A DNA stretch of 38,533 bases from a virus (IMGVR_UViG_2721755643_000003:1-38533); one strand, 5' to 3'. Shown: positions 2,549-27,025, counted from the first letter of the stretch. The notes: generated by a model from the sequence alone, not told the origin. A program made the numbers and translations.

Positions 2549-4237
2549 TTACTGCTTAATCACGGTACTGTACTTCGCTTTCAGGTTGCCTGCCATTGAT
2601 GCCACCGTGTCTATGCTGCCGCTGTTGGTGGGCTGTGACGACCCGTTGTTGGTATGAGTGTGTTGTGCGGTGAGCTGCGCCAGTTGCTGAACGGTGTCGC
2701 AAAGATCCAGCATGAGGTTAAGTGTGTTGATGGTATTGCTGCCAAACCAGACCTGCGGGGCGATGATCTGTTGCATCTGGCCAGCGACGGATTTTTTAAT
2801 CCGGCCAATCTTTTCTTCCAGCGTTTTCGCCACATTGTGGGTGGTGCTTTCTGTGCTGGTTTGCCACTGGTGAGTAACGTCGAGTTCAGCGCTGTCGGCG
2901 TGCTGTATCAGTTTCTTCGTGGCGGCTACGGCATAGTCACCGTCTGCGATGTGCTGTATGTGGCCGCTCATCAGCTTATGAGTGCCGAGCACCGTTATGG
3001 TGTTGTTGGCCTTTACGGTAATATTACGAGTGGTACTGGTGCGCGTTTCCGTTGTGTTCTGGATGATGCGGTCGGTGGATTTCTCACGAATAACCTGATC
3101 GGTTTCACGCTGCCATGTGCCATCTGTATGCACACGCTGGAATACCTCTGCGCGTTGCTGTTGTAGTTGTTCGCCGGGCTTTATTCCCGGCAGACTCTGG
3201 CCGCTGGCGTGAGTGCCGGTGATGATGGGTTTATCCGGCCTGCCGTCAACGTGGGCCAGTGTAACTATGGTTCCTGGGGGCGGGTACTGGAATATCCCGG
3301 ATTCATTGCCGGCCATTGGCACAGGAACGGGGACGGCGTTATATACCGGTGTGTTCTTATCGGGGGTGCCGTTCTCGTCGAGCAACTGCACATTGACGGC
3401 GTAGCGTGGGCGAAATTCATCATGCAAATCCCCCTGGGTTGTGTTTTCAGTTGGTGAGATCACGCGTCCCATGCGTGGAAGGTGGGTTTTGTTGCCTATC
3501 TCGGGGTAAAGGGTTTCGATCTGGCGTTGTACGGGCGACTGACGGCCATCACTCCAGCTAATGATCATGCTGTCGCCCTGTAGCTGTACCTGATTTATAC
3601 GGTGATCGTTCATGACCACGCCGGGGCGCATCATGGGAATCGTCTGTATTGTCCAGCCATTTGCTCCGTGATCACCTCTGGTGATATCGACCGGCAATCT
3701 GGCAGGGCGTTTTGCAAAACGGCAGTCAGCAAAGCTTCCGGCGTAGATGATGCCGTCAACCGACGGATACCAGACGTAATCCGGGATACTGAATATGCGG
3801 CCAAGCATGGCCATCAGCTGATAACCGTTGCCATTGTGGGTCAGATGAGGGACCGGAGTGGTGGTGTAGCCTGCCTTCGGGAGTTGTATGCGTAAACCTG
3901 TATTGCCTTCAATGTGTCCTGCGACCTGTTTCAGCGTCGGATGCTGCATGGAGATGTTGAGCGGGTATTGCAGAATAGCAGCAGCTTCGCGCACCATCAG
4001 CTTGTGCAGCCCTCTGCCTGTACAACTGTCACTTTCCACATATCCCGAAAACCACTTTACAGGCTGATCATTGTAACCGATGGACAGCTCTACGGGTTTG
4101 CCGCGTAGCGGGGGAGTATTGTCGGCGGCGTTAATGGTGATAAAGCCGGTTCCCGCGCCGTTGAGACGCAACATGATGTTTTCTTCCACGACAGGATAAC
4201 GCCTGCCGTTAATGCAGAGATCACGAATTGGTTTCAT
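2549..4237 (-). CDS. Baseplate hub / central spike protein (gpD- and gpV-like, VgrG-like)
   Basis: 562 aa; N-terminal CINGRRYPV...LNGAGTG resembles the P2 gpD TLNGRDIT region; central GIFQYPPPGTIVTLAHVDGRPDKPIITG resembles the gpV/gp5 OB-fold; C-terminal HxH (GHIQHI); last gene of the tail operon. Confidence 0.55.
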   Translation of the reverse strand: MKPIRDLCINGRRYPVVEENIMLRLNGAGTGFITINAADNTPPLRGKPVELSIGYNDQPVKWFSGYVESDSCTGRGLHKLMVREAAAILQYPLNISMQHPTLKQVAGHIEGNTGLRIQLPKAGYTTTPVPHLTHNGNGYQLMAMLGRIFSIPDYVWYPSVDGIIYAGSFADCRFAKRPARLPVDITRGDHGANGWTIQTIPMMRPGVVMNDHRINQVQLQGDSMIISWSDGRQSPVQRQIETLYPEIGNKTHLPRMGRVISPTENTTQGDLHDEFRPRYAVNVQLLDENGTPDKNTPVYNAVPVPVPMAGNESGIFQYPPPGTIVTLAHVDGRPDKPIITGTHASGQSLPGIKPGEQLQQQRAEVFQRVHTDGTWQRETDQVIREKSTDRIIQNTTETRTSTTRNITVKANNTITVLGTHKLMSGHIQHIADGDYAVAATKKLIQHADSAELDVTHQWQTSTESTTHNVAKTLEEKIGRIKKSVAGQMQQIIAPQVWFGSNTINTLNLMLDLCDTVQQLAQLTAQHTHTNNGSSQPTNSGSIDTVASMAGNLKAKYSTVIKQ

Positions 4238-4787
4238 TGCCTGCCGGGCCTATCCAGTTATTGAGTTTGTCTGACATTTTCCAGAACCAGCCATGCTCTT
4301 CGTTTTTTTCGCCTTTGCCACCTGATTTGACGGCCTGTGCGTGCTGTTCAGCACTCTGGCTGCCAGCCGGGCCGCGTCCTGTCGCCTTTTCGGCACTGCT
4401 GAGTTTTTCTTTCAGAGTGAAGTCAACTTTCCATGCCATCAGGCCTGTTTCAGGAGTTGCGCCCACGGCACCGGAAAAAATCCCTTGCTTCATATTGACC
4501 GCTTTGGCATCCATGTTGGCGATGCGGTAAACCTGTTGTGCACCGTTAGCGGCTCTGGCTTCAGCCAGACGAAATAAGCGTGTGAGTGCTTCCGGCTGGG
4601 TGAACGGAATCAGTCCGGAAATCTGCAGCTCCTTGGCTTTTACACCCTGTTCTGAAGTCGCTGTTGATGAGGATTTTCCGGAAGCGTCTTTGTCTTTGAT
4701 GGTCAGCTTCACGCTGACACTTAAGCGTTTTAGCGGGATTATCTGACCATTAAGGGCCAGCAGTGGCGTTGTCGTGTTCTGGCTCAT
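4221..4787 (-). CDS. Hypothetical phage tail-associated protein
   Basis: 188-aa ORF on the tail-operon strand between the fibre chaperone and hub/spike; Lys/Ala/Ser-rich; no family recognised; GC content similar to core genes. Confidence 0.35.
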   Translation of the reverse strand: MSQNTTTPLLALNGQIIPLKRLSVSVKLTIKDKDASGKSSSTATSEQGVKAKELQISGLIPFTQPEALTRLFRLAEARAANGAQQVYRIANMDAKAVNMKQGIFSGAVGATPETGLMAWKVDFTLKEKLSSAEKATGRGPAGSQSAEQHAQAVKSGGKGEKNEEHGWFWKMSDKLNNWIGPAGNETNS

Positions 4788-5493
4788 TTTCTGCCTTCGT
4801 TATCCAGTTCAGCATCCCGGAAAGATCGCCTGCGAACAGGTGTGCATATGTCAGTGAAGCTGTGGGGTGCGGAATATTTTTCATCATTTCCCGGCGGGCT
4901 AAAACGGCGTCGCCGGTGTGCACGAACGCAAATGCTTTTGCCACTTTATCGCCTGCTCCTGCCAGTTCAGCGATTATCTGTTGCTGCAACCGTTGACGTT
5001 GTGCCTGAAAACCGGATAACGCGTTTTTCAGTGAGTCGACAGAGTTCAGCCCTTCGGCCTTCATAGCGTTAAGCGCGGTGTGGTTACTGATGCTGTTCTG
5101 TAGTGTGCTGGCAATAAGTGGTTGCGGAGCGGGTAGTCCGTTCTGTGGTGTCGCCGGGATTTGCATTCTGGTGATTGCCTGGGTGAGCTGTGTTCTTGCG
5201 CGTCTTAGCGTCTGCGTCAGAGTGGGTAAAGGGAGTGTGTCTGCCAGTGCTGACAGTTGACGAATAAAATCGTTATTATTGCTGCCTGTTACCATTATGA
5301 TGGCGATATCGCTGTTTTCGGTCAGGCCCGGGAGTTTGCTGTTAAGGTGGTTTATTGCGTTGACGGGGCTTAAATACGCACCGTCTGGCGTAATGTGCCC
5401 CGCTTCAACATCCCACGGATGTACGGCCATAGCTGAACATGTTATGGGGGTGATATTACCTGTCGGAAGCATCAGTTTTGCCGGAAACCACAT
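4750..5493 (-). CDS. Hypothetical phage tail-associated protein
   Basis: ORF track 4750..5688, trimmed to the Met at 5493, which has a GAGAGG Shine-Dalgarno 8 nt upstream and avoids overlap with the upstream gene; no family recognised. Confidence 0.35.
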   Translation of the reverse strand: MWFPAKLMLPTGNITPITCSAMAVHPWDVEAGHITPDGAYLSPVNAINHLNSKLPGLTENSDIAIIMVTGSNNNDFIRQLSALADTLPLPTLTQTLRRARTQLTQAITRMQIPATPQNGLPAPQPLIASTLQNSISNHTALNAMKAEGLNSVDSLKNALSGFQAQRQRLQQQIIAELAGAGDKVAKAFAFVHTGDAVLARREMMKNIPHPTASLTYAHLFAGDLSGMLNWITKAENEPEHDNATAGP

Positions 5494-5629: not shown

Positions 5630-6157
5630 TCACCCGGGCTTTTGTGGCCATTCAGGTTTTGCAGTGTCCACACGGCTGACCAGAACACTGTAGCGTTCCC
5701 ATGCTTCCAGTCGTGTGCGTTCCTCGTCTGTTGCCATATTCAGCCTGACAGCGCGTTCCAGCGGCTGGATGACTGATTCAGCTTCGGAAAGTAACGCGGC
5801 CTTTTGTGATTCGGCCTGTTGTTGCTGCTCGCCTGCCGTATAAATCCGCTTAACCACAGCTCCGTCCTTAAACATCCACTTCCCGGAGTCATCAGCACGT
5901 CGGTTGGCGGTAATATCAGGAACTTCGACAACGCTGAAACCTTCAGGATTAAGCGTTGAGGTATCTTTGGTAATGGCAACAATAATATTATTTTCGTCGT
6001 AAACAATCTTTATTGTATCTGGCTGAAAGTTCTTCACTTCCTCATACCAGTTTTTCCCGTCTTCAGCGTAAAGCCAGATGACTCTGTGCTTCTTTGTTAA
6101 CTCATACTGTTCCGGCGTTTTAGCGTTACCCGCTTTTATGTTCTTTAAGTGCATCAT
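5630..6157 (-). CDS. Tail fibre assembly chaperone (P2 gpG / Tfa-like)
   Basis: 175 aa starting [10 protein letters not shown]; immediately downstream of the tail fibre gene; size and N-terminus typical of the Tfa family. Confidence 0.75.
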
Positions 6158-6158
6158 A

Positions 6159-8165
6159 TTAAATACTCGCTACGTTATACCAGGTGCCATTAATCAGTTT
6201 TTGCAGCGGTCGGTAATACACACCGTTGACGTTATCCGCTGAGTTACGGCCGGTATCCGATATCGATATCCCTGACAGCCCGTGTCCCGAAGGTGAGCGA
6301 AACGTCCATGAAACGGTGTTGCTGCCAGGGTTGTAATACATTTCATGGCCATACCGCACATCCTGTACCCCCTCAGTTCGATGTTTATAGCGGGCATCGA
6401 AGTTTCCGTAATTTAACGGAATTACCTGTCCGTTTACGGCGAACGTGATGCTGTTATCTGTATTCCTCTGGCTGAAAAAATGCCAGCCTGAATCATCACC
6501 AAGCTCTGCAACAACAGGCCTGGATGGATTACCCCACAAATAAAACGCTGCATTTTTCGTGGAGTTGTTGGCGCTGGATAACGTGAATTTTCTGGCAGTT
6601 CCGGCCTGAATATTCTTAAAAGCAATAGTCACACCATTCTGAAAACGGAATACTCGCTGACCATTCGCATAAACATCAAGCAGACCATCGCCATTTTGTT
6701 TAAACCCGGTATCGTTATCTCCTAAAACGATTGAACTTCCACCTAACGCATTCGTCGTACCAATTCCAAGACAACCATTAATGACGGCATTAACCAGAAT
6801 ATTTAGTGAATCCCATTTAAGATTCATCAGGTCTTTAACCCGGCCGCCAGCGAGGCGGTGTCTCCATTTGAAATATTCATTACCGTTATCCGCCGTTTCA
6901 AACCACATGTAGGAATCGGTGTCTGCATCCGAATCATTTTTAAATCCAATCTTCGCCCAGTCAGTATTCCGAATCCAGGCGAGGATTGAGTCGTTTTCAA
7001 AAGTCAGTCCACCGGACAAGGTATCGCCTGTCTTTTGGACAGCGTTATCAGCCTTGTTTACCGTTTCCTGTAAACCAACGTTCTGGATAAACAGCGGTTT
7101 ATCGGGAATATCTGCTCCGTTCTGATTTTTTTGCAGCGCTCCTGTGATGCGGATGTCGTCACCTGCGGCTACAGTGTCCTGCGCGGTGCCAACATTAAGG
7201 GTGGCGCTGTCGCCGAGGCCCATATGCTTTCTGGCATCAGACTGGGCCTGTTCACCTTTGTCAGCAATTTCTTTCAGGTTCCCGTTACGGGTCAGGTATT
7301 CGCCATCAAGGCGGTCATTTAATGGTTTGCGGGTTTTTCGTATATCGGTGATCTCGCCACTGTCTGATATTGTGGCGATGGGTTCGACATAATGGGCAAA
7401 TCCTGAACTGTCGGTATAGTCGGCTGTTTTCTGACTCGTCAGGCTGAATATGGCTTTATTTTCCCCGGTCAGGGTACCGGTTAATGCCGCGTCAACATAA
7501 ACAGTTTGTGAAATTCCGGTGGCGTATGTCAGTGTGCCTTGTTCATCCAGCTCCACACGTAATCCGCGCAGATAGGCAATACCCGGCGCGAAGGTCGCCT
7601 GCCCGGTAGCCTGAGCGGTGAGTTTAAAGGCGTTATTAAAGAACAGGCCAGGCCCGTAGATATCCAGCGCCGCTTTGCGGGTGGCCTCGTCCATGCCGTG
7701 AAGCCGTGCCGTAAAATCAATCTGCCAGGTGCTTACTGGCGTGGTGATGCCGGTTGCGGCGCTGGCTCCGGCGTATTCCATAATTTCAGAATAAATCAGG
7801 GTATTACCCTGTTTGCCGTCTGCGGTTTTTATTTTTTTCTGAGGGTGAAGATATACCACCATACAAAGTGTATTTGTGGTGCTGCTTACCAGACCCAGCC
7901 AGTTAAAAGTAAAATCACCCGTGGACTCCGGCAGGGTAACGGAGTAGGCGACGGTGTTCTCATTTACCATTCCGTTGCGATCAACGTTCTGGCGGTGAAC
8001 TATCTGTGCATCGGGGGGCAATGGTTCGTTTTCAGACGGCGTGTCGGCAATGTTCAGATCCGGGATATTTGCAAATACAAACTGATCAATGATGATACGG
8101 TTGCCGCCTGCGGCTTCCTGCGCTTTCAGGCGCTCAAATGCTGAAGTGATAGCGCTCTGGGTCAT
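6159..8165 (-). CDS. Tail fibre protein (P2 gpH-like C-terminal receptor-binding region)
   Basis: 668 aa; C-terminal ~300 aa ([48 protein letters not shown]...[11 protein letters not shown]) closely matches the remembered P2 gpH C-terminus; N-terminal part differs. Confidence 0.85.
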
Positions 8166-8706
8166 TTTTCATCTCCGGTGCATAAAAATAGTGATAGCTG
8201 CCATGCCAGTATCCGTGTCCGATAACACAATCCGTGGATGTGATTATCTGAAGATGGTAACGGCGGCAGGTGCGACCGTACTGGCGAATTATCTGATTGA
8301 GTAATGTTGTATTTTCTGAGATCTGGTTGTCTGTCAGGCGCAAAAGAACAACATCCCAGTCTGTGCCTGGCTGGCGCTCCTGAATCTCCACATAACCGAT
8401 CCCCAGTCGTTCAAAAATTGCCCTGAATCCCGCCACGCTGCCCGCGTCCTGTGCGTTGATAAAGGCATATTTGACACGCTTTCTGTACAGCGTGAGCGGT
8501 TCGCCGTCAAAACGGGCTATATCATATTGCCAGGCTGTCAGGTTCAGAATGGATTCCGCACATGTCAGTGGGTCGGTCTGGCTCAGTGGCCATGTTACCC
8601 AGTCGTGCACCTTTCCCCAGAAACGGATAAAGGTGTTTTTCAGGCGGAGCACATCGCCGCGATTCAGCCATGACGGCAACTTAATGTCCGGTGATTTATC
8701 AGGCAT
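8134..8706 (-). CDS. Tail/baseplate protein I-like
   Basis: 190 aa; between baseplate J-like and tail fibre genes as in P2 (J-I-H); size matches gpI. Confidence 0.6.
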   Translation of the reverse strand: MPDKSPDIKLPSWLNRGDVLRLKNTFIRFWGKVHDWVTWPLSQTDPLTCAESILNLTAWQYDIARFDGEPLTLYRKRVKYAFINAQDAGSVAGFRAIFERLGIGYVEIQERQPGTDWDVVLLRLTDNQISENTTLLNQIIRQYGRTCRRYHLQIITSTDCVIGHGYWHGSYHYFYAPEMKNDPERYHFSI

Positions 8707-9877
8707 TCTTCACCTCAACTGTCAGTGTGTTCAGGCGGGGTACGTTCAGATCGCTGATGATATCCTCAAGGGAAAACGTCACGGATCCCACCAGAGGAAA
8801 GGTGTCATGCAGTTCGCGTCCCAGTTGCGAGAATGAAAAGCGACTGTATGGCCATGTGCGGGTTACGTCGTAGTTACTGTTTTCACGGAATGCACAACGA
8901 ATCAGGTTTTCAGTGCCTGATTTCAGGGCGTCGATATCGTTTTTGCTGATATTGGAAAGGTTTTCAACATACACCGTAACCGCCAGATCGTGGCGGGTTT
9001 CCGGCATGGCAAAACAACGCATATCATCGCCGTGGCCGTGATGTCCCTGTGCCATGATGTAATCATTCACGCTGTCAACCCAGGGTTGCGAAATAACCCC
9101 GGTATCCAGCAGCAGGTAGGCATTAGTTGTACCAGGTCCTCGCGGGGCGTCATGTAAAAAGAAGATGCGATCGATGGTCAGTCCGGCCTGTGCAGCTATC
9201 AGGCTGCGGTAAACTGCGTCAGTGTGATAACTGCCGGCAAGGTTAAACTGGTTACGGCAACGATCTTTTAGTTCGTCGTCACTTTCGCGGTTTGCGCCCG
9301 GTATGGTCAGCCAGTTATCACCGTTACGTACAGACGCAATTCCGTTAATCGCTTTGGGGAGTATCTGGTAATAGCCTGGTGCCAGATTGAATGCCGTACC
9401 GCTGTCGGTGGCGATCACATCAATAAGGGTGCTTTGCGTGCCTGCGGGGATAATTACCTGCTCGCGGGTCGCCATGGAATAAATCACACCGTTAATACGC
9501 TCCGTCTGAATCAGTGTGCCAGCCGGTACGGTCACACTGTCATTCTGGTTGTTTTTGGTAAAAATGATTTTACCGATCGCACGCGTGGCTTCCTTGCGGG
9601 TAAGCTTGAGGGCGGCAGCGAACAGGTCAACGAACGGCCCTCTGGCAGTCATCAGAAACAGATTATGCAGTACATTGTCAGCCAGTGTGTCAACAATCCA
9701 CACATACGGCGTGATAACCAGCAACTGAATCAGCCGCCAGAATGGCGACATGCGCGACGTATTGGTGATGAGTTTTTCATCATCTGCCACCTGTTGCAGG
9801 GTGTCACGTACGGTCTGTTCATCAACCGGCATTCCGCTTTCGCGCAGTATGTTTTTGAAGTCGATATTATTCTGCAT
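8699..9877 (-). CDS. Baseplate J-like protein
   Basis: 392 aa; order W-J-I-H as in P2/Mu baseplate wedge modules; 8-nt overlap with the downstream gene. Confidence 0.65.
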   Translation of the reverse strand: MQNNIDFKNILRESGMPVDEQTVRDTLQQVADDEKLITNTSRMSPFWRLIQLLVITPYVWIVDTLADNVLHNLFLMTARGPFVDLFAAALKLTRKEATRAIGKIIFTKNNQNDSVTVPAGTLIQTERINGVIYSMATREQVIIPAGTQSTLIDVIATDSGTAFNLAPGYYQILPKAINGIASVRNGDNWLTIPGANRESDDELKDRCRNQFNLAGSYHTDAVYRSLIAAQAGLTIDRIFFLHDAPRGPGTTNAYLLLDTGVISQPWVDSVNDYIMAQGHHGHGDDMRCFAMPETRHDLAVTVYVENLSNISKNDIDALKSGTENLIRCAFRENSNYDVTRTWPYSRFSFSQLGRELHDTFPLVGSVTFSLEDIISDLNVPRLNTLTVEVKNA

Positions 9878-10205
9878 AGCGCATCCCCTGGCTTAACTGA
9901 CCAAAATCGTAGGTATCGGCGGTAACAAGGAGCTGGCCGCGTTGCTCTTCGTCAATAAATACGGAGCCGGGAATGAGGCGTTCATCCTCCTCCAGGAGTA
10001 TCACCATTTGCGTGAACAGGTCGGCCCTGAGTGTGGGGCTGTTCTCCGCAATCAGACGACAGGGCAGACCACTTTCAATCAGGGCGTGAATCATGTCCTG
10101 AGCAATACTCTGGCGGTTGTCACACAAGACCGGCTCACTGGCGGAGTTGAACGTAAGATCGCCGTCAGTAATGAGCAGGTCGATATAAAGTGATTTCGTA
10201 CTCAT
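9867..10205 (-). CDS. Small baseplate protein (gpW/gp25-like, putative)
   Basis: 112 aa; immediately precedes J-like gene and follows tape measure; assignment by size and position only. Confidence 0.4.
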   Translation of the reverse strand: MSTKSLYIDLLITDGDLTFNSASEPVLCDNRQSIAQDMIHALIESGLPCRLIAENSPTLRADLFTQMVILLEEDERLIPGSVFIDEEQRGQLLVTADTYDFGQLSQGMRYAE

Positions 10206-12290: not shown

Positions 12291-12487
12291 TACCCACCTT
12301 TAAATGCTCTCGCAATGCCGTTATTGACGGCAATACTCATGTTTTCGAAATAACGGTTGTCCAGCCAGACCGCAGCGGCAATGTCTTCCGGTGTGTCCTC
12401 GCCATCCGGTAGCCAGTGGCGGCGTAATACCAGATATTGCGCGTAGCCGTTGCGCTCAATGCCGGACAGTGCCGCCTTTATTTTTTT
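12290..12487 (-). other. -1 programmed frameshift extension of the tail assembly chaperone (E' analogue)
   Basis: The chaperone ORF ends ...GTA AAA AAA TAA; a slippery A7 run (+ strand T7 at 12481-12487) sits just before the stop; the -1 frame is open for about 62 codons to a TAA that overlaps the tape measure ATG. Confidence 0.65.
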
Positions 12488-12777
12488 ACGGTGATATCCA
12501 GATTGACGGCAAAATCTTCATTGAGTTTTGCTGCCATCTGAAGGGCTGCTCCCGGGCGGTGAATGAGCTTCTCCAGTTTCTCTTTGTCTTCCGGGTGTAC
12601 ACAGCGCATCAGGTAGTTTTTGGCTGGCGCCACCTTGTTATCCATCGTTATTTCATTCACGAACTTGTTGTAGACAGCTTCGGTCGGGGCGAAGCGAATG
12701 TCCTCGCCTGCGACGGTCAGGGTGATGATGGTGGTATTTTCGTCTTTCATGCTATTTTCCCCGGTGAGTGGTGCCAT
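12478..12777 (-). CDS. Tail assembly chaperone (gpE / lambda G analogue)
   Basis: 99 aa immediately upstream of tape measure; ends in slippery poly-A; canonical position for the G/GT or E/E+E' pair. Confidence 0.6.
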   Translation of the reverse strand: MAPLTGENSMKDENTTIITLTVAGEDIRFAPTEAVYNKFVNEITMDNKVAPAKNYLMRCVHPEDKEKLEKLIHRPGAALQMAAKLNEDFAVNLDITVKK

Positions 12778-12780
12778 TTT

Positions 12781-13245
12781 TTAATGACATTGTTCAGTAA
12801 TGTACTGTTGCAGGCCGTTCACTTGTGCAACGACGGCTTTCGCTTCGGCTCTGAGATGCTGATAATCCCGTTCAGCGTCCGGAGTAAGTCGGGCGGCGGT
12901 TGCATCAGTTGAGCCGGTGGCGGTGGTATCACGCGTGGCGGCGGGCATACAGACGGCGTGGAGCTGCAACCGGCGACGGCCAGAAGCAAGATCGGCGCGT
13001 AACTTTTCGGATTCAGCTTTTGCATTGGCGAGCTCCTTTGTGTATTTCGCATCAAGCGCGGCGTTCTGGCGCTGACGCAGTGTCATGTCGTCAATGGTCT
13101 GCTGTCGGGTGTCGGCAAGATTTACGGCTTTCTGGCGGGCTTTTTCTGCCCTGGTGAAGCGGTTGTGCCAGTAGTCAGCTGTGAAGCCGAGCACGGCCAC
13201 GGCGACGACCATGAAGACGATAAAGGCGAGTGTTGCGCGTTTCAT
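12781..13245 (-). CDS. Rz-like i-spanin (lysis protein)
   Basis: 154 aa with N-terminal TM (MKRATLAFIVFMVVAVAVLG) and Ala/Arg/Glu-rich coiled-coil-like remainder; follows the endolysin; contains an embedded lipoprotein ORF. Confidence 0.7.
   Translation of the reverse strand: MKRATLAFIVFMVVAVAVLGFTADYWHNRFTRAEKARQKAVNLADTRQQTIDDMTLRQRQNAALDAKYTKELANAKAESEKLRADLASGRRRLQLHAVCMPAATRDTTATGSTDATAARLTPDAERDYQHLRAEAKAVVAQVNGLQQYITEQCH
12819..13025 (-). CDS. Rz1-like o-spanin (outer-membrane lipoprotein) embedded in Rz, +1 frame
   Basis: Within track ORF 12819..13055; from the internal Met: MQKLNPKSYAPILLLAVAGCSST with lipobox LAVAGC, then Pro-rich stretch; embedded architecture as in lambda Rz/Rz1. 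Confidence 0.6.
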   Translation of the reverse strand: MQKLNPKSYAPILLLAVAGCSSTPSVCPPPRVIPPPPAQLMQPPPDLLRTLNGIISISEPKRKPSLHK

Positions 13246-13251
13246 GTGGCC

Positions 13252-13695
13252 TTACCTCTGTCCCAGAAACATTGCCCGCTCACGTCCGCGACGCGGGGCC
13301 AGAATTGTCGGGTTACTGCCTGCGCGGCTCCATTTCAGGAAAGCATCAGCGGCGGCGGTGTAGTTGCCGGCGTTTAACTGACGGCGAACGGTGGAACCGA
13401 TAAAAGCGTCAGCGCCGATATTGAAAATCAGGCTACACAACGCGTCATACTGACTCTGGTTCAGCGGAACTGTTACCCGTTCAGCGATGCAGTGCTCCAC
13501 CCATGACAGATCGTCGCGTAGCAGTCTGTCGGCGGTGTCCTGGGTGATGGTCATGCCTTTGTGAACTGCGACACCATCAACCTTTCCTGTGTGACCTGTA
13601 CCAATGGTCCATACGCCGCGCGGATCGGGGTAAGCGGTCAGTTTGCAGTTTTCTTCGCGTTTAAGTGCGGCCAGCCCGTTGTCTGAAATTTTCAT
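13252..13695 (-). CDS. Endolysin (phage lysozyme/muramidase, GH24-like)
   Basis: 147 aa; N-terminal LKREENCKLTAYPDPRGVWTIGTGHT matches the T4-lysozyme-type E...D...T catalytic region; 4-nt overlap with the holin. Confidence 0.85.
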   Translation of the reverse strand: MKISDNGLAALKREENCKLTAYPDPRGVWTIGTGHTGKVDGVAVHKGMTITQDTADRLLRDDLSWVEHCIAERVTVPLNQSQYDALCSLIFNIGADAFIGSTVRRQLNAGNYTAAADAFLKWSRAGSNPTILAPRRGRERAMFLGQR

Positions 13696-14030
13696 TCGTC
13701 ACTTTTCCCTGCAAATTTCTTTGTGATGAACACACCCAGTGCCCGGATATGTTCAACACCAATAAGGCCAATTGCGGCACCGATACCGACGCGCCAGTCT
13801 TCGGTCAGCCATGCGACGGGGACCGGCTTAATGAGGGTGAATGCCGCCACGGCCAGCAGGCAACACAACGGCACCTCAAGCAAAAGACGACGCCAGCTGC
13901 GGCCTGTGTAAAACACTCTGAGTGCTGCAATGACGGCAGTCATCAGCAGACTGTCAAGAGGGATATCACCACGTAACCAGTCTTTGATTATCGCCAGCCA
14001 GTCGCTCCAGTTGTGGGGGGTGCTTTGCAT
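13692..14030 (-). CDS. Holin (putative)
   Basis: 112 aa with 2-3 predicted TM segments and charged C-terminus; immediately upstream of and overlapping the endolysin start. Confidence 0.6.
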   Translation of the reverse strand: MQSTPHNWSDWLAIIKDWLRGDIPLDSLLMTAVIAALRVFYTGRSWRRLLLEVPLCCLLAVAAFTLIKPVPVAWLTEDWRVGIGAAIGLIGVEHIRALGVFITKKFAGKSDE

Positions 14031-14038
14031 TGTCTTTC

Positions 14039-14500
14039 CTATTGGTTCATGATGTCCCGAACATCGGTGGCGCTGAGAACCGGAACACCGTCAATTTTGA
14101 CGAACTCCGGCGAAGTCACCATAAATTTGATTTTATGGCTTATGTTGTCACCGCCCTTGCTGTCGATATTCAGCAGGTTACTGATCAGCAGTTTGCAACC
14201 AAAGGCTTCCACCCTGAGTTCTGTCTTTGCTGCACGGGCAAAGAAGAGAAAGTCGGCTTCTTCGATGTCGCGCCAGCTCCCTGCTTCACGCGCGGCTTCA
14301 CCAAGAAGCTGGAAGTTAACGGTATCCAGTTCAATTTCACCGCCGGCTTCCACGTCGCCGCGTACCCAGCCATCAGGTACACCGCGCTCCTGAATGGCTT
14401 TGGTGTTGTCGGTAATATCAAGGGTGGCGGTTTTTACGTGAACGATGCGGCCATTAAATGACGTGTCAAAGCTCATACCACTGATGCGTTCGGTGTTCAT
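14039..14500 (-). CDS. Tail tube protein (putative)
   Basis: 153 aa directly after the putative sheath gene and upstream of chaperone/tape measure; size and position typical; no motif verified. Confidence 0.5.
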   Translation of the reverse strand: MNTERISGMSFDTSFNGRIVHVKTATLDITDNTKAIQERGVPDGWVRGDVEAGGEIELDTVNFQLLGEAAREAGSWRDIEEADFLFFARAAKTELRVEAFGCKLLISNLLNIDSKGGDNISHKIKFMVTSPEFVKIDGVPVLSATDVRDIMNQ

Positions 14501-14503
14501 GGG

Positions 14504-15628
14504 TTACTCTCCGCTTTCGTCCAGCATGATGCTGATGGTGATTTCTTTCGGGCAGTTATACGGGCGAACCACGATCGCAATCTGCACTTTGTCTTTTTCC
14601 GGCCATGAGATTTTTACGTCGCCGTCGTGCGGTGACATGCAAAGGCCAGGGAATACCGTGCCGTTGATTTTCAGGCTCTTTGCGCCGTCGCGCATGGGCT
14701 TCGCGAAAAGCTGTTGGTGCGCGGCCACACTTGCCGGGGTGGAGTTCAGTGAGCGATTGGCGATTTTTGGGATAGCCAGCAAACGCACCTGACGGGCCAT
14801 TTCATCGGCAACGCGCAGATATTCGATAGCCTGATAATCGCCACCGTCCACATCGAGCGTGACGCCGTCGGCCCAGTAGTAACCTTCGTAGTCGGGATAC
14901 CACGTTGGTACGCTGAAACGCGCCCTGTTCAGGGCCCTGATGGTGGCAATGTCCAGTTCGCGCTTGTCGCTGTCCTGCGGTTTATCGTTGCGGCCCATAT
15001 TGACCAGTGCGCCGGTTGCAACACGGGCGGGGGAATCAGCAATCGTCACTGATGGATTGCAAAGGCGACCGGCCAGTATCCCCGGTTCATTGCCGAACAG
15101 CATCGGGGTAAGCTGCACCGCGTAAGCGGCAATGCCTTTCTGTAGTCCGGTCATGACGGTGACGTATTCTGACCACTTCTCGCCTGTTCCGCAGCCGCGA
15201 ACAGCCAGGATAAACCATGTCCAGCGCTGGAAGGTGTTATTGAGTTCGCTGCGCAGTTGCTGCGCTTTGTCGATATCGTTACCTGAGGCGTTAGCGCGAA
15301 CAACGACAACGCCTTCCACCGAGAGGGTGGCCTGTGCATCCATAACCACATCAGCCCACGTTCGGGTCTGACCAGAAGGCTGGGGTGTCTGCACGGTTGC
15401 CAGCCAGATCATGGCATTTTGTCCGGCATTATCCAGAAACGCCTGCACGTTACTGCGTAACAATGAATCCTTTGTTCCTAACAGCGAGTCAAGATCGGTT
15501 TGTGCTGTAACCGGTGTCGGGAGAATGGCTTTTGTATGCTCGCCCACCATCAGCAGGGTGCAGGCGATCCCACGCTTGCTTCCGCTGTGGGTGTTGAGCT
15601 GATTAATTGTGACCTGTGGAAACGTCAT
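14504..15628 (-). CDS. Tail sheath protein (putative)
   Basis: 374 aa; first large gene of the tail block, followed by a tube-sized gene; positional and size inference. Confidence 0.5.
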   Translation of the reverse strand: MTFPQVTINQLNTHSGSKRGIACTLLMVGEHTKAILPTPVTAQTDLDSLLGTKDSLLRSNVQAFLDNAGQNAMIWLATVQTPQPSGQTRTWADVVMDAQATLSVEGVVVVRANASGNDIDKAQQLRSELNNTFQRWTWFILAVRGCGTGEKWSEYVTVMTGLQKGIAAYAVQLTPMLFGNEPGILAGRLCNPSVTIADSPARVATGALVNMGRNDKPQDSDKRELDIATIRALNRARFSVPTWYPDYEGYYWADGVTLDVDGGDYQAIEYLRVADEMARQVRLLAIPKIANRSLNSTPASVAAHQQLFAKPMRDGAKSLKINGTVFPGLCMSPHDGDVKISWPEKDKVQIAIVVRPYNCPKEITISIMLDESGE

Positions 15629-16363: not shown

Positions 16364-16843
16364 TTATTTCCCTGCCCTGATGGTGGATACAGTGATATTT
16401 TCTGCCACCCAGATCTCTGGCTTATCCAGCCGGTAACGGATGCCGCCCATCATGATAAAACCGGCCTCGTCCGGGATCAGAATGATGGGGTCAGCGAGCG
16501 GCATACTGACAGTCACTTCTGCAATGTTGTCGTCCGTGGGTTCGATGTTGACATCCGGCGCATCAAGCTCAAGCTGGCTGTAGTAGTCATTAGCCTGTTC
16601 GTCCCGCCAGACAAGCAGGGCGCATAACAGCAAATCAGGGTCAACCTGACGCCATGGCCAGCGCTGCCAGTCGAACACGGCGTTGTACTGGCGAATACCC
16701 ATTCTTATCTGTCCAAGCCCCATGTCTTTCTCTGCGGGCAAAAGACGAATATCACTCATCCACGAATCAAAGCCGGTATTGTCAAACACGGAAATGTCAA
16801 ACACCTGCCGCAGATATGCATAAAGGCTGTCGAACTGGCTCAT
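16364..16843 (-). CDS. Tail completion protein (gpR-like, putative)
   Basis: 159 aa; segment LLLCALLVWRDEQAND resembles the remembered P2 gpR LLIVPVLAWLRENQPD; follows L with a 4-nt overlap. Confidence 0.45.
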   Translation of the reverse strand: MSQFDSLYAYLRQVFDISVFDNTGFDSWMSDIRLLPAEKDMGLGQIRMGIRQYNAVFDWQRWPWRQVDPDLLLCALLVWRDEQANDYYSQLELDAPDVNIEPTDDNIAEVTVSMPLADPIILIPDEAGFIMMGGIRYRLDKPEIWVAENITVSTIRAGK

Positions 16844-17310
16844 AAGATGTACACTCCCACACGGCCTGCGCCCTGGATAGCACGCAGCACAAAGGCCGCT
16901 TCAGCAAGCAGGGTTTCGCGGGTGTCATTACTGTCGATATTGCTGTCGGCGTGGCGGGTGTTCACCGCCGTAAACTCACCGAGAAGATCGGCTTTGGCGC
17001 GGGCAAAGACCGCTTTTTTGTACTGTGCGCAAAGGGCGCTTTCGCCGTTAAGTTGCGGGCCTTCCACGTCCGCCGCCTGCGCTATTCCCTGCACTACGTA
17101 GCGGGATTTCACACCGGTCAGTGCGGTGTTCACCTCAAAGACGGCAGACAATAACGCCTGTTCTGCCAGTGATGCAGGGATATCCAGTGGGATAGTTCGG
17201 CTTCTGCGAAAATCAGCCATGACCAGATCCGGCCAGAAGCCATCATTTTTAAGCATGCCTGTAGCAGTGTCTGTGTTCTGGTCTGTGCTGTAGCCTGGTT
17301 TCAGGTTCAT
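16840..17310 (-). CDS. Head completion/stabilisation protein (P2 gpL-like)
   Basis: Track ORF 16840..17511 trimmed to the Met at 17310 (MNLKPGY...); C-terminal ...AAFVLRAIQGAGRV resembles the P2 gpL end; an alternative start at 17379 is possible. Confidence 0.55.
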   Translation of the reverse strand: MNLKPGYSTDQNTDTATGMLKNDGFWPDLVMADFRRSRTIPLDIPASLAEQALLSAVFEVNTALTGVKSRYVVQGIAQAADVEGPQLNGESALCAQYKKAVFARAKADLLGEFTAVNTRHADSNIDSNDTRETLLAEAAFVLRAIQGAGRVGVYIL

Positions 17311-17414
17311 GACTGATTCTCTGTGTAGGTCAGGTCGGGCGAACGGTTCCGTGGCATGACTGACGCTTGTGCGTGTCATCCTCACCGTGCCCGCCTGAAG
17401 CCGTGGGGCTTTCG

Positions 17415-18116
17415 TTATACCGCCCGTAATGCGCGCAGACGGGCGGCTATTTTGTTTTGTATGGCGCGAACACCTGCTTTGGGGGTGGTGCTGTGCGCAC
17501 GGGCCATCCACTCATCGGCGCTACGTAGTTTCGCCACGTCGTAAATGGCGGCCGGGGTTGTCGGTTTGCCATCGCTGTCCCGTAACAGGTTAAGACCGGC
17601 GAATTTGTACCATCTGGCAACTATATCTTCGTGCAGTGTCCAGTCTTTTTCGATATGGCTCATCACGCGGCTGAAATAGGGCTCGACGGAAAGGCCTTTA
17701 TCAAACTGAATCTGTGCCCACTGCATGACCTCATCGGCAACGAACGTTGGCAAATCACGGTCAAAGCGTGGTGGCATGGGTTGATTCTGCCCGATGGCGA
17801 TATCGGCCCATTCCAGGGCTTTGTCCATTTCGCCGGTATCAAACAGCCAGACGATGCACCAGGTAAACGGGATGTATTTGTACTCCTCGCCGCTTTGCAG
17901 CCACGCCTCAATCGTCGGCATCCAGCGCGGCAGCAGGGATTCACGCTTGAATGCCACACGATCGGCGTTGGTGGCGCAACTGCTCACAGCCCTGCAGTCG
18001 ATTTCCAGTTGCGCCAGTTGCAGATGAAGACTGTCGCGTACGGTCAGTGCCTCGTGGCGTTCCATCGCCTGCTGCGCGGCCAGTCTGGCTCTGAACTTTT
18101 GCGCCGGAGTCTGCAT
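17415..18116 (-). CDS. Terminase small (endonuclease) subunit, P2 gpM-like
   Basis: 233 aa between capsid and head-completion genes, in the P2 order O-N-M-L. Confidence 0.6.
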   Translation of the reverse strand: MQTPAQKFRARLAAQQAMERHEALTVRDSLHLQLAQLEIDCRAVSSCATNADRVAFKRESLLPRWMPTIEAWLQSGEEYKYIPFTWCIVWLFDTGEMDKALEWADIAIGQNQPMPPRFDRDLPTFVADEVMQWAQIQFDKGLSVEPYFSRVMSHIEKDWTLHEDIVARWYKFAGLNLLRDSDGKPTTPAAIYDVAKLRSADEWMARAHSTTPKAGVRAIQNKIAARLRALRAV

Positions 18117-23830: not shown

Positions 23831-24349
23831 TTATTCGAAGCTGGCAAGAATCTGTTCTCGAACAGAAGATTTCATCGTTAACCCACGATCCAGGAAAAAT
23901 TGGAAATGCATTAAGGCTTGTTGTTTGTGGATAAATCTCCTGCGCACAGCCTCCTGGAGTAGCCCTCCGTGGCGGGCGGCTTTTACACCGCGTTCCGCAC
24001 ACGTTTTATAAACCGCATTATCCGCCGAAAGACATGTTGCATCATGTATTCTCGCGTTAACAACGCAGCTTATGTCCGCATACTTCAATGCTCTCCTGCG
24101 ATTTTTTATCTCAGCCATTTCAATAAAATGTTCAGGTTCGTAATCATTGGTGAAATTGTATGGAAGTTGCAGGCGTGTAAGCTGTTCCTGAACATCAAGA
24201 TTGTATTTAGCTTTTAGTTCCTCGCAGACATAGGGGTCAATCCACACACCACCCGGGTAAATTTGCCAGATAAGATCTAAGCATTTACCTTCGTAAAAAT
24301 CAGACAGTACATTCGTATCGATAACACATCTGGGGCATTCAAACGGCAT
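23831..24349 (-). CDS. PIN-like nuclease domain protein (DUF4411-like, candidate toxin/effector)
   Basis: Track ORF 23831..24382; probable start at 24349 (MPFECPRCVIDTNVL) with AGGAGG 9 nt upstream; PIN-type acidic positions in VIDTNVL, VCEEL and IHDATCLSADN; overlaps the upstream gene stop by 11 nt; AT-rich. Confidence 0.6.
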   Translation of the reverse strand: MPFECPRCVIDTNVLSDFYEGKCLDLIWQIYPGGVWIDPYVCEELKAKYNLDVQEQLTRLQLPYNFTNDYEPEHFIEMAEIKNRRRALKYADISCVVNARIHDATCLSADNAVYKTCAERGVKAARHGGLLQEAVRRRFIHKQQALMHFQFFLDRGLTMKSSVREQILASFE

Positions 24350-25484
24350 CCTCTCCGGCCTCCTGTTCGTCGTACCATTCATCCAGAAGATTGCTGAGAG
24401 CTTTTCTGTCTAATTCTAAAAGTTCAGATATGAAGGTTTCCGACGCGGAACCGGCTTCCCATGCTTTACGCGATAAGACGGTTAGGCGACCTTTATAATT
24501 TAGTGCTTCCCTTATGGGATTTGGCTCGTGTCTCTTCCAGCCTTTACGATTGGCGGTTGCCCATAGGTATCTAGTGTTTTGCTGATTAATTAAATTACAT
24601 TTACTAAGACGCTCAATGATGCAAGTGGCTGATACTCTGAAAATGCTTTTTAGTCTAAGGACGGTTTCCTCATACGCCCATCCACCACCTTGCATGACGA
24701 ATTGTTTTCGCAACGCGCTTTCTGGTACCAAAAAACAAGCAGCAAAGTGATTAGCAACTTTTTCTTCCGGTGAAATTGCTTTGCCATTAGTTTTATAGCT
24801 TTTAGCAGGGCCATCATACTCATCACGGTGGAAGATAAGATGAGCATATTCATGGCAAATACTGAAGATTTGACGTTCTATTGAAATGCTGTCGTGAACA
24901 TTTACATAAATCGCGGTACCGTATTTGTTCGAAAACGCAGAAAATCCGAATACCATCCCTTTATCGGTTTCCTCGCGATTGAACGGGATCACTCGAATAT
25001 CCGATGCTTCCAAAATGGCTACAATGTCACCAACGCAAGTAGCGTTTCCCATACCAAGACGGAAACGTTCTTCCATAGCCTTATCTTCGACTCTTCGCAA
25101 ATCTTCTGCTTTGGCGGTAAAAACAGGCATTGAGTTAGGAAGATCTTCTGGCAAATTAGCATCAGCAGCTTCCTCAATTGCATTGATATTTTTTAACTTT
25201 TCAATCAACTCATTGCGAAGTCTGGCATCCAACAAATCCGGACTATCTGCTCGCATTGCAAAACGAAACTCGCCATCATCTTGCTCATAAAAATACCCGA
25301 CAGGCTTATCGAAAATCTTGCAGAGCATGATGAGTTGGGTAACGCTTGGGACGCCTAGCGCCTGCTCAAACTTACTGTAGGTTTGACGAACAACACCGAT
25401 CGCATCTGCGACGGCGCTTGCACTCATTCCTGCGTCGTTTCTGGCCTGAACCAAGCGTTCTGCTATACGCTGTTGAATGTTCAT
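24339..25484 (-). CDS. Fused XRE-family HTH / ImmA-IrrE (M78) zinc metallopeptidase regulator
   Basis: 381 aa; N-terminal HTH (AERLVQARNDAGMSASAVADAIGVVRQTYSKFE); HExxH as HEYAH and downstream E...ANHFAACFLVPE, the ImmA/IrrE signature; GGTGA ribosome-binding site. Confidence 0.8.
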   Translation of the reverse strand: MNIQQRIAERLVQARNDAGMSASAVADAIGVVRQTYSKFEQALGVPSVTQLIMLCKIFDKPVGYFYEQDDGEFRFAMRADSPDLLDARLRNELIEKLKNINAIEEAADANLPEDLPNSMPVFTAKAEDLRRVEDKAMEERFRLGMGNATCVGDIVAILEASDIRVIPFNREETDKGMVFGFSAFSNKYGTAIYVNVHDSISIERQIFSICHEYAHLIFHRDEYDGPAKSYKTNGKAISPEEKVANHFAACFLVPESALRKQFVMQGGGWAYEETVLRLKSIFRVSATCIIERLSKCNLINQQNTRYLWATANRKGWKRHEPNPIREALNYKGRLTVLSRKAWEAGSASETFISELLELDRKALSNLLDEWYDEQEAGEDAV

Positions 25485-25600
25485 ACGTCACCTGAATTTA
25501 ACAATGGTGGCTCTTATGGGTTTAGATTGGTTAATTATTACTAACATTATGAATGGAGAGTTGCAAAAATCATAATTAAATTATGCAAATTTCATGGAGT
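25485..25600 (-). promoter_or_regulatory. Promoter/operator region of the HTH-peptidase/PIN operon
   Basis: AT-rich; on the - strand TTGCAA, 17 nt, TAGTAAT upstream of the GGTGA site; imperfect palindrome GTTAATTATTACTAAC near the -10 as a possible operator. Confidence 0.4.
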
Positions 25601-25868
25601 GTGATGTGGTGTGGGTTCACACTCTCTGCTGATTACATCCAGGGCGGTTTCCGCCCTGGCTCTGCTTACTCAGGAAATAACGCCCGGATATTTCCGGCCA
25701 TCTGACTGGTTATCTGTGCGGTTGGTACTGGCTGTGGCGTGGGCGTTCTGCCCTGTTTGCGCCCTGACCTATGCAATCCGCGCCGGATTCATATGGCACA
25801 TGTTTGAGGTAGCCTGAGTTTAACGGACACTCCTTCCTGAAATAGAATGGCATCAGAAGGAGCTAATA

Positions 25869-26171
25869 ATGAGCAGAAAAACCCAACGTTACTCTAAAGA
25901 GTTCAAAGCCGAAGCTGTCAGAACGGTTCTTGAAAATCAACTTTCGATCAGTGAAGGCGCTTCCCGATTATCTCTTCCTGAAGGCACTTTAGGACAATGG
26001 GTTACCGCCGCCAGAAAAGGGCTCGGTACTCCTGGTTCCCGCACGGTGGCTGAACTGGAATCTGAAATTCTGCAACTGCGTAAGGCGTTAAATGAAGCTC
26101 GCCTTGAGCGAGATATATTAAAAAAAGCAACAGCGTATTTTGCACAGGAGTCGCTGAAAAATACGCGTTAA
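25869..26171 (+). CDS. IS3-family transposase OrfA (HTH DNA-binding part)
   Basis: 100 aa ending ...LERDILKKATAYFAQESLKNTR; slippery A_AAA_AAA then G at about 26120-26127 near the 3' end. Confidence 0.85.
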   Translation: MSRKTQRYSKEFKAEAVRTVLENQLSISEGASRLSLPEGTLGQWVTAARKGLGTPGSRTVAELESEILQLRKALNEARLERDILKKATAYFAQESLKNTR

Positions 26172-26206
26172 TCGAACAATGGCGACAACAATTTCCCATT
26201 GAAGCG

Positions 26207-27025
26207 ATGTGTCAGGTATTTGGTGTATCCAGGAGCGGTTATTACAACTGGGTACAGCATGAACCCTCAGACAGAAAACAAAGTGATGAGCGGCTAAAAC
26301 TGGAGATTAAGGTGGCACATATCCGCACTCGCGAAACATATGGAACCCGGCGGCTCCAGACGGAGCTGGCAGAGAATGGCATCATCGTTGGTCGTGACCG
26401 ACTGGCACGTCTTCGTAAGGAGCTAAGGCTACGCTGTAAGCAGAAACGCAAGTTCAGAGCGACTACGAACTCGAACCACAATCTGCCAGTTGCGCCAAAT
26501 CTGCTGAACCAGACGTTCGCTCCTACAGCACCAAATCAGGTCTGGGTGGCGGACCTGACGTATGTTGCCACACAGGAGGGATGGTTGTACCTCGCTGGCA
26601 TCAAAGATGTTTATACGTGCGAAATTGTCGGCTACGCCATGGGAGAGCGCATGACAAAAGAGCTGACAGGTAAAGCCCTGTTTATGGCGCTCAGGAGCCA
26701 GCGCCCACCTGCCGGGCTAATCCACCACACCGATCGAGGTTCACAGTACTGCGCATACGATTACCGGGTCATACAGGAGCAGTTTGGTCTGAAAACATCA
26801 ATGTCGCGTAAAGGTAACTGTTACGACAACGCTCCGATGGAAAGCTTCTGGGGAACGCTGAAAAATGAGAGCCTGAGCCACTATCGTTTTAATAACCGGG
26901 ATGAAGCCATCTCAGTAATACGGGAATACATTGAGATTTTCTACAATCGTCAGCGTCGTCACTCTCGTCTGGGGAATATCTCCCCGGCAGCCTTCAGGGA
27001 AAAATATCATCAGATGGCTGCTTAA
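26207..27025 (+). CDS. IS3-family transposase OrfB (DDE catalytic part; expressed as OrfAB by -1 frameshift)
   Basis: 272 aa in the -1 frame relative to orfA; DDE context VWVADLTYV, HHTDRGSQY, ESFWGTLKNE; the frame is open back to the slippery site. Confidence 0.85.
   Translation: MCQVFGVSRSGYYNWVQHEPSDRKQSDERLKLEIKVAHIRTRETYGTRRLQTELAENGIIVGRDRLARLRKELRLRCKQKRKFRATTNSNHNLPVAPNLLNQTFAPTAPNQVWVADLTYVATQEGWLYLAGIKDVYTCEIVGYAMGERMTKELTGKALFMALRSQRPPAGLIHHTDRGSQYCAYDYRVIQEQFGLKTSMSRKGNCYDNAPMESFWGTLKNESLSHYRFNNRDEAISVIREYIEIFYNRQRRHSRLGNISPAAFREKYHQMAA

Follow-up and report, generated by a model that had tools for sequence, protein, structure and literature searches.

The stretch of DNA analyzed here, 38,533 nucleotides long (IMGVR_UViG_2721755643_000003:1-38533; hereafter the window, with coordinates counted from its first letter), is a prophage with its tail genes on the minus strand, among which a lysis cassette encoding a holin, an endolysin, and Rz/Rz1 separates the tail tube gene from the tail assembly chaperone gene. 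The window very probably represents an HP1-subgroup prophage of the P2-like phages (Peduoviridae), with the cassette in a position between tube and chaperone that is ancestral to the clade, rather than one created by local insertion into a P2 genome. The ancestral position is indicated by the distribution of the gene order, which is clade-wide in the HP1 subgroup. That order is already known for HP1-like phages, and the element in the window is an ordinary member of the subgroup.

Late gene order in HP1-type phages

Read along the minus strand, the late genes are L, R, S-like, sheath, tube, holin, endolysin, Rz/Rz1, chaperone, tape measure, W-like, J, I, fiber, Tfa, two small baseplate genes, and hub. 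Open reading frames (ORFs) were labeled from Pfam and PHROG family searches, and identities to HP1, to the Escherichia phage ESSI2_ev239, and to P2 were obtained with tblastn. The ORFs, their family labels (Table 1), and the NCBI annotation of strain RMDEC364, an identical Escherichia coli sequence whose gene list agrees with that of the window, all support the gene calls and order of the original prediction, which had been made from the sequence alone and had placed the lysis cassette between tube and chaperone. The same prediction took this order as the mark of a modular recombinant, a conclusion contradicted by the presence of the same order in HP1, in ESSI2_ev239, and in 71 of 78 surveyed loci. 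It had also described the adjacency of tube, chaperone, and tape measure as broken; the tube-chaperone junction is indeed interrupted, but chaperone and tape measure remain adjacent.

The RefSeq order of HP1 is orf20 (adaptor), orf21 (terminator), orf22, orf23 (sheath), orf24 (tube), hol, lys, the spanin-like orf25, orf26 to orf30, orf31 (fiber), orf32 (Tfa), orf33, orf34, and orf35 (baseplate). Searching HP1 and ESSI2_ev239 with the window proteins gave collinear matches for every tail gene, at 28 to 62% identity. HP1 (Hpunavirus, Peduoviridae; NC_001697) resembles the window gene for gene from L to hub, in the slippery site at the end of the chaperone gene, and in its integration at tRNA-Leu, with amino acid identities of 50% for sheath, 52% for tube, 45% for chaperone (orf26), 50% for J, and 59% for integrase. 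It differs in having a Phage_holin_2_3 holin, a 186-residue lysozyme only 28% identical to that of the window, and an orf25 product with no BLAST similarity to the window Rz; it also lacks the P2-like fiber tip and Tfa, and the major capsid identity is only 25%. The ESSI-2 group (Escherichia/Cronobacter, Evevirus; ESSI2_ev239, NC_049392) contains the closest sequenced phages overall, with amino acid identities of 53% for sheath, 57% for chaperone, 62% for J, 65% for portal, and 56% for terminase. Its gene order is identical to that of the window, and both have ogr after the portal gene, whereas the ESSI2_ev239 cassette consists of a Phage_holin_3_2-type holin, a 113-residue M15 peptidase endolysin, and a different spanin, and its replication module has a primase where the window has a gpA-type nickase. 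An Ogr/Delta-type gene following the portal gene has also been described for K139 (PMC8537503).

Five further Peduoviridae genera were represented by phiO18P, F108, SI7, yong1, and C5a. Annotated holin, endolysin, or spanin genes lie between tube and chaperone in phiO18P, F108, and SI7, and the tube-chaperone interval of yong1 and C5a contains an insert with no lysis annotation. A sheath-profile scan of one genome per bacterial species identified 80 loci in Enterobacterales and Pasteurellales (the same kind of scan with the single tube protein as query found no relative), and 78 of the 80 had both tube and chaperone homologs. The interval between the two genes was 860 to 1430 base pairs (bp) in 71 of the 78, where a short hydrophobic protein, an endolysin, and a spanin-like product are encoded; the holins were of the Phage_holin_3_2 or Phage_holin_2_3 families, and the endolysins were M15 peptidases, GH24 lysozymes, GH108 enzymes, or unclassified. 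No insert was present at the remaining seven loci, comprising six Xenorhabdus clusters and one Citrobacter prophage. The sheath, tube, chaperone, and tape measure genes of the six Xenorhabdus loci (L040, L042, L044, L046, L047, and L049) are of HP1 type, and their slot, of 150 to 225 bp, contains no lysis cassette. Upstream of their sheath genes no N, M, L, or S-like homologs were found, and because they have no head genes they look like headless tailocin (xenorhabdicin-like) loci. The complete Xenorhabdus prophages L045, L048, and L050 retain the lysis cassette.

With its P2-family head block, a DUF2586 sheath paired with a Phage_HP1_Orf24 tube, a lysis cassette at the tube-chaperone junction, and the downstream order from chaperone to hub, the window has the features of the HP1 subgroup. 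It departs from the P2-type tail and lysis organization in both gene order and tail sequence homology. As the original prediction stated, the order is unlike that annotated for P2 (Peduovirus), in which the lysis genes follow L, between L/X and R/S, the baseplate operon V-W-J-I-H-G lies ahead of FI-FII-E-T-U-D, and the tube gene is directly followed by E/E'. The synteny comparison with P2 and related prophages that it had called for thus shows a real difference from P2, but not a peculiarity of this prophage, because HP1 is collinear. The window and P2 share a divergent Q-P / O-N-M-L head block, an Ogr-type activator, a gpA-type replication nickase (30% amino acid identity), and lysis genes embedded in the late morphogenetic operon. 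The predicted P2 relationship of the head, terminase, and portal genes is borne out by amino acid identities of 25 to 39%; across HP1, ESSI2, and P2 the head block Q, P, O, N, M, L is 25 to 65% identical and has the same arrangement, with the genes for portal and large terminase running divergently from those for scaffold, capsid, small terminase, and gpL.

Had a P2-type tail operon recently acquired a lysis cassette by insertion and undergone reshuffling of its tail blocks, the result would be an unusual recombinant that differs from P2 in order and has P2-related head genes, as the window does, and the 65% identity of the fiber tip to P2 H and the 88% identity of Tfa to P2 G indicate that some exchange with P2-type phages did occur. 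We nevertheless consider such an origin highly improbable. The identical order in HP1, ESSI2_ev239, and most surveyed loci argues against it, and since no similarity to the tail genes of P2 was detected for them, the window tail genes cannot have arisen by reshuffling of that phage's genes. At E ≤ 1e-3, tblastn against P2 gave matches only for the head genes, gpA, integrase, the C-terminal half of the fiber, and Tfa; the window tail genes had no match to P2 FI, FII, E, T, V, W, J, I, U, or D at that threshold, and J and I are linked to P2 at the Pfam family level only. Recombination scars, which the original prediction had suggested looking for at the cassette flanks, were not found: the borders are only 3 to 8 nucleotides long, which leaves no room for them, and contain no repeats or remnants.

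That P2-like phages fall into a P2 and an HP1 group is established (PMC2771037). HP1-group and P2 tail proteins are very distant from each other, and the two tail modules, anciently different, have been read as ancient paralogs, with one of them acquired at the separation of the clades (PMC10612066). A module placed among the tail genes is the usual location of lysis genes (PMC10612066, PMC2771037). The family is therefore modular in a deep sense, but this is known of the clade and is not particular to the prophage in the window.

Table 1. Predicted features of the window, listed for the late genes in minus-strand order; percentages are amino acid (aa) identities and E values are from family searches
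Feature	Coordinates	Strand	Evidence and remarks
gpL head completion	16840-17310	-	Family search; NCBI start is the ATG at 17310
gpR-like tail terminator	16364-16843	-	Pfam P2_Phage_GpR E 3.7e-13; PHROG 65 'tail terminator'; 35% ESSI2_ev239, 28% HP1 orf21
S-like tail completion/neck protein, 242 aa	15632-16360	-	PHROG 26 'tail completion or Neck1' E 9e-19; weak Phage_tail_S match; 43% ESSI2_ev239, 28% HP1 orf22
Tail sheath, DUF2586 family, 374 aa, HP1 orf23 homolog	14504-15628	-	Pfam DUF2586 E 9.5e-114; PHROG 907 'tail sheath' E 5.9e-125
Tail tube, Phage_HP1_Orf24 family, 153 aa	14039-14500	-	'tail protein' E 2e-54; 52% HP1 tube
Class I holin, lambda S family, 112 aa	13692-14030	-	Pfam Phage_holin_3_1 (PF05106) E 1.4e-15; PHROG 126
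Soluble GH24 endolysin, P22 gp19-like, 147 aa	13252-13695	-	Pfam Phage_lysozyme E 1.8e-39
Rz i-spanin, 154 aa	12781-13245	-	Pfam Phage_lysis (PF03245) E 8e-33; PHROG 13
Rz1 o-spanin, 68 aa, +1 frame inside Rz	12819-13025	-	ORF begins MQKLNPKSYAPILLLAVAGC; lipobox VAG|C; Pro 15/68 residues
Tail assembly chaperone (TAC_10)	12478-12777	-	Pfam Phage_TAC_10 E 4.5e-31; NCBI start at 12750
Slippery heptamer A_AAA_AAA, putative -1 site	12481-12487	-	Abuts chaperone stop: GTA AAA AAA TAA
-1 frame extension, DUF6890, about 63 codons	12290-12481	-	Pfam DUF6890 E 6e-24
Tape measure protein, 693 aa	10209-12290	-	Pfam PhageMin_Tail; PHROG 28 E 4e-90; 50% HP1 orf27 across the N-terminal half
W-position baseplate protein (DUF2590)	9867-10205	-	Pfam DUF2590 E 1.3e-38; 58-62% HP1 orf28 and ESSI2
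Baseplate J-like protein	8699-9877	-	Pfam Baseplate_J E 7e-27; 50-62% HP1 orf29 and ESSI2
gpI-like baseplate protein	8134-8706	-	Pfam Tail_P2_I E 7.7e-7; 51-57% HP1 orf30 and ESSI2
Tail fiber, HP1-type N-terminus and P2 H-like C-terminal half	6159-8165	-	Pfam Phage_tail_fib (N-terminal)
Tail fiber assembly protein (Tfa), P2 G-like	5630-6157	-	Pfam Caudo_TAP; 88% P2 G across 99% of length
Tail/baseplate protein, HP1 orf33 homolog	4750-5430	-	35% ESSI2_ev239 gp03 and HP1 orf33; no match in Pfam search
HP1 ORF34-type baseplate complex protein	4221-4787	-	Pfam HP1_ORF34 E 1.2e-48
Baseplate hub/spike, Vgr-like, HP1 orf35 homolog	2549-4237	-	34% HP1 orf35, 44% ESSI2 gp01; weak Phage_base_V OB domain match; NCBI name 'T6SS Vgr family protein'
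Integrase	37532-38533		59% HP1 Int
att direct repeats, 68 + 52 nucleotides	400-520 and L003 48141-48261 (= window 38640-38760, beyond window end)		Start in tRNA-Leu(UAA) anticodon loop

The lysis cassette and exchange at the tube-chaperone junction

The cassette (12781-14030) is predicted to encode a complete system of holin, soluble endolysin, and two-component spanin. The holin has three hydrophobic segments (residues 23-41, 49-67, and 83-101) and a charged C-terminus, but no dual-start (Met-Lys-Met) motif, Met being present only at positions 1 and 30; it is only about 34 to 42% identical to lambdoid holins. The endolysin contains the catalytic motif E15-X8-D24-X5-T30, has no N-terminal membrane segment, and shares 65 to 66% amino acid identity with the P22 gp19 and ES18 lysozymes. 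Rz has an N-terminal transmembrane domain at residues 4-22 and two cysteines (Cys99 and Cys153), and the DNA of the 3' half of Rz/Rz1 is 67 to 68% identical to lambdoid Rz/Rz1 and rzpD/rzoD. Rz1 is missing from the NCBI/RefSeq annotation of the prophage. The genes are closely packed, with gaps of 8 nucleotides between tube and holin, -4 nucleotides between holin and lysozyme (a start/stop overlap), 6 nucleotides between lysozyme and Rz, and 3 to 30 nucleotides between Rz and chaperone.

The lambda/P22 cassette (S/13, R/19, Rz/Rz1) has the same three-component logic, with a Phage_holin_3_1 holin, a GH24 lysozyme, and an Rz gene with embedded Rz1. The lambdoid cassette lies downstream of the Q antiterminator and ahead of the terminase genes, whereas that of the window lies inside a myovirus tail operon, and the window holin, unlike those of lambda and P22, lacks the dual-start motif. 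BLAST of the three lysis proteins against HP1, ESSI2_ev239, P2, and the 78 surveyed loci detected nothing except a lysozyme match at 28 to 32% identity.

Among closer relatives the position of the cassette is constant and its content varies. A common Salmonella prophage (L094) has the same order and the same cassette with one extra ORF, and is 76 to 94% identical at the amino acid level from portal to baseplate I; its fiber is 79% identical across the N-terminal 60% and its Tfa 34% identical. In a second Salmonella prophage (L096) the head and neck genes are only 33 to 51% identical, and the genes from sheath through gpI, cassette included, are 66 to 90% identical, which places a mosaic breakpoint relative to the window at the boundary between the S-like and sheath genes. 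In a third (L090) the holin and Rz are retained, the second gene is a different one, and a DNA methyltransferase is present as well. The sheath, tube, chaperone, and tape measure of a Klebsiella prophage (L091) are 71 to 82% identical to those of the window, and its slot encodes a Phage_holin_2_1 holin, a lysozyme 36% identical, and an Rz 43% identical. An Edwardsiella slot (L092) contains Phage_holin_2_1, lysozyme, and Rz genes, and that of Pseudomonas putida (L093) a DksA/TraR-type zinc-finger gene, a small ORF, lysozyme, and Rz. Across relatives the slot contains genes of at least four holin families and of no fewer than four types of endolysin. HP1 and ESSI-2 themselves carry other holin and endolysin families, so the comparison of sequences indicates that the position of the slot is conserved and its cassette exchangeable.

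Genes other than lysis genes are also found in the slot. DNA methyltransferase genes are present in Salmonella L090 (5722-6675) and phiO18P (L005 6579-8227), and DksA/TraR-type zinc-finger genes in phiO18P (L005 6579-8227), yong1 (L008 6618-6836), and P. putida L093 (4950-5168). The C5a ORF at the same slot position (L009 6581-6781) is annotated only as 'transcriptional regulator'.

The content of the window cassette suggests an addition to the account of an ancestral position: in the ancestry of the E. coli/Salmonella lineage, horizontal exchange probably, by a modest margin of confidence, put a lambdoid (lambda/P22-type) cassette into the slot in place of the earlier one. Membership of the holin in the lambda S family agrees with this, as do the resemblance of the lysozyme to P22 gp19 and of the Rz/Rz1 DNA to lambdoid Rz and the near absence of BLAST matches to the three proteins in HP1, ESSI2, and the surveyed loci. 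The Klebsiella relative points the same way, with a holin of another family and a poorly conserved lysozyme between closely related flanks, as does the mixed content of Salmonella L090. On the other side, the divergence of the cassette across the Salmonella lineage equals that of its flanks, at 79 to 90%. Any such exchange would not be recent, because even against the holins of the phage collection the window holin reaches only about 34% identity.

We tentatively propose, with rather less assurance than for the replacement itself, that the tube-chaperone junction may be a dedicated exchange slot comparable to the defense-gene hotspots of P2, at which whole cassettes are swapped between unrelated phage groups, lambdoid phages included, and extra genes, such as those for DNA methyltransferases and DksA/TraR zinc-finger proteins, are taken up while the flanking tail genes stay fixed; in its favor are the variety of holins and endolysins in the slot and the change of cassette between relatives with flanks 71 to 82% identical. 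The P2 H/G-like C-terminal half of the fiber together with Tfa (5630-7200) looks like the product of a host-range module exchange: the fiber N-terminus is 40 to 45% identical to those of HP1 and ESSI2, and the C-terminal 51% of the protein is 65% identical to P2 H. Judged from these alignments, recombination is apparent in the slot content, in the P2-like fiber tip and Tfa, and in the head-versus-tail mosaicism among Salmonella relatives.

Sheath, tube, chaperone, and expression of the late genes

The original prediction would fail if the proteins called sheath and tube were really lysis-associated or tail completion proteins, and the order consequently conventional. The predicted model of the tube matches tail-tube and Hcp folds, which speaks directly against a misassignment of that protein. 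The sheath is less simple. Its family is still DUF2586 in Pfam, and no sheath family was matched by DUF2586 proteins in Pfam at E ≤ 10. Searching PDB sequences with profiles of the two proteins produced no meaningful match, and hhalign of HP1-type sheath and tube profiles (built from 7-8 and then from 83-85 sequences) against P2 FI and FII gave probabilities below 1%, leaving the sheath with no sequence link to P2 FI or to a solved structure. The AlphaFold2 model of the sheath failed, with a mean confidence (pLDDT) of 38 from 12 sequences at least 86% identical, and did not confirm a sheath fold; the low value is explained by an alignment of near-identical homologs only. A literature search on DUF2586 found no paper. 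The sheath label is based on the PHROG and RefSeq labels of DUF2586 proteins, on the position directly upstream of the tube gene, on size, and on the lack of any other sheath- or tube-sized gene in the prophage. For ACA1, a phage of the HP1 subgroup, HHpred has in addition connected tail proteins with the sheath and tube of P2 (PMC10612066), a link that hhalign did not reproduce here. Taken together, these observations make misassignment of the two proteins extremely unlikely.

In the -1 frame at the end of the chaperone gene, the putative slippery heptamer opens into the DUF6890 ORF, whose TAA stop overlaps the ATG of the tape measure gene; the NCBI annotation calls this ORF as a separate gene with a non-canonical ATA start. 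A heptamer A_AAA_AAC or A_AAA_AAA at the chaperone stop, followed by a -1 ORF of 60 to 64 codons, is present at 79 of 83 related loci, HP1 included, and the conserved pairing supports the chaperone assignment. Tail chaperone pairs produced by -1 frameshifting include G/GT of lambda and E/E' of P2. The arrangement in the window matches this type of programmed frameshift, and we infer that slippage into the -1 frame at A_AAA_AAA yields a second form of the chaperone, which would be a fusion with the DUF6890 extension.

No gap in the array from O to Tfa exceeds 104 nucleotides, and a gap of 199 nucleotides follows Tfa. A scan for sigma-70 and terminator consensus sequences found nothing above chance, and no site on the coding strand at the cassette or its borders. 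The cassette, with no promoter or terminator of its own, would accordingly be co-transcribed with the tail genes. In this subgroup the late genes form one tight array, comprising O-N-M-L, the R/S-like genes, sheath, tube, lysis cassette, chaperone with its -1 extension, tape measure, baseplate, fiber, and hub, and the cassette would be transcribed with the tail genes from one or more Ogr-dependent late promoters. Lysis proteins would accumulate along with virion parts, and the holin would set the time of lysis; the soluble P22 gp19-like muramidase would depend on the holin to reach the wall, and Rz/Rz1 would provide the third step.

Several points weigh against this account as a whole. Of the two labels called into question above, that of the tube is upheld by its fold match, and that of the sheath could not be confirmed independently here. 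The two forms of the chaperone are read from sequence, and co-transcription and lysis timing from gene packing only. No late-promoter motif was found: the P2 dyad TGT-N12-ACA has 8 matches where 10 are expected, none of them intergenic, and is thus no commoner than chance. Finally, an IS600 copy lies within the prophage (25869-27025), which bears on the inducibility of this copy.

The prophage, its relatives, and what the finding means

Of 5426 complete E. coli genomes, 5 have the window sequence in the chromosome as a prophage, at 99.6 to 100% identity, and it adjoins a Gly-Cys-Leu tRNA cluster. The second att repeat is located just past the integrase gene, outside the window, and the annotated attP region of HP1 contains the same 15-nucleotide anticodon-loop sequence; by these sequence signs the prophage is integrated in E. 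coli at the tRNA-Leu(UAA) gene by an HP1-like integrase. A reading of the window as a tailocin or defective remnant was rejected, since the prophage has head, packaging, replication, and integrase genes alike. The region had no megablast match in the phage collection, and the nearest sequenced phages there reach about 50% protein identity at best. Close relatives of the tube (70 to 91%) and holin (74 to 92%) are abundant in Salmonella enterica. Among the isolated phages of the collection, then, none comes nearer to the lineage of this prophage than about 50% protein identity, yet as a prophage the lineage is common in Salmonella.

Some neighboring genes are peripheral to the late array. The mechanically called gpL ORF (16840-17511) begins at a GTG start 67 codons upstream of the NCBI start and overlaps the gpM gene, and its family match begins only at residue 87. 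Downstream of ogr, a PIN-domain gene (23831-24349) overlaps the gene of a 381-residue helix-turn-helix protein (24339-25484), which is followed in the NCBI annotation by a truncated 'plasmid partitioning/stability' pseudogene and then by the IS600 copy; the region 23831-27025 may be an accessory or defense island in which the insertion sequence has interrupted a cargo gene. The NCBI annotation also places two genes (994-1604), one small and hypothetical and the other for a Hok/Gef family toxin, at the end of the prophage, in the interval from attL to the hub gene.

The HP1-like gene order has long been known (the HP1 genome was reportedly sequenced in 1996) and is common to hundreds of prophages, so the finding itself matters little. 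Its value is mainly for annotation of prophages of this lineage in E. coli, Shigella, and Salmonella, in which 'DUF2586' denotes the tail sheath, 'DUF2597/phage protein' the tube, and 'DUF6890' the putative frameshift extension of the tail chaperone, and in which the Rz1 gene has been left unannotated. A minor evolutionary point is that a conserved slot between tube and chaperone receives an exchangeable cassette, of lambdoid type in the E. coli/Shigella/Salmonella lineage. If the junction is indeed a dedicated exchange slot, cassette type should track the host envelope rather than phage phylogeny.

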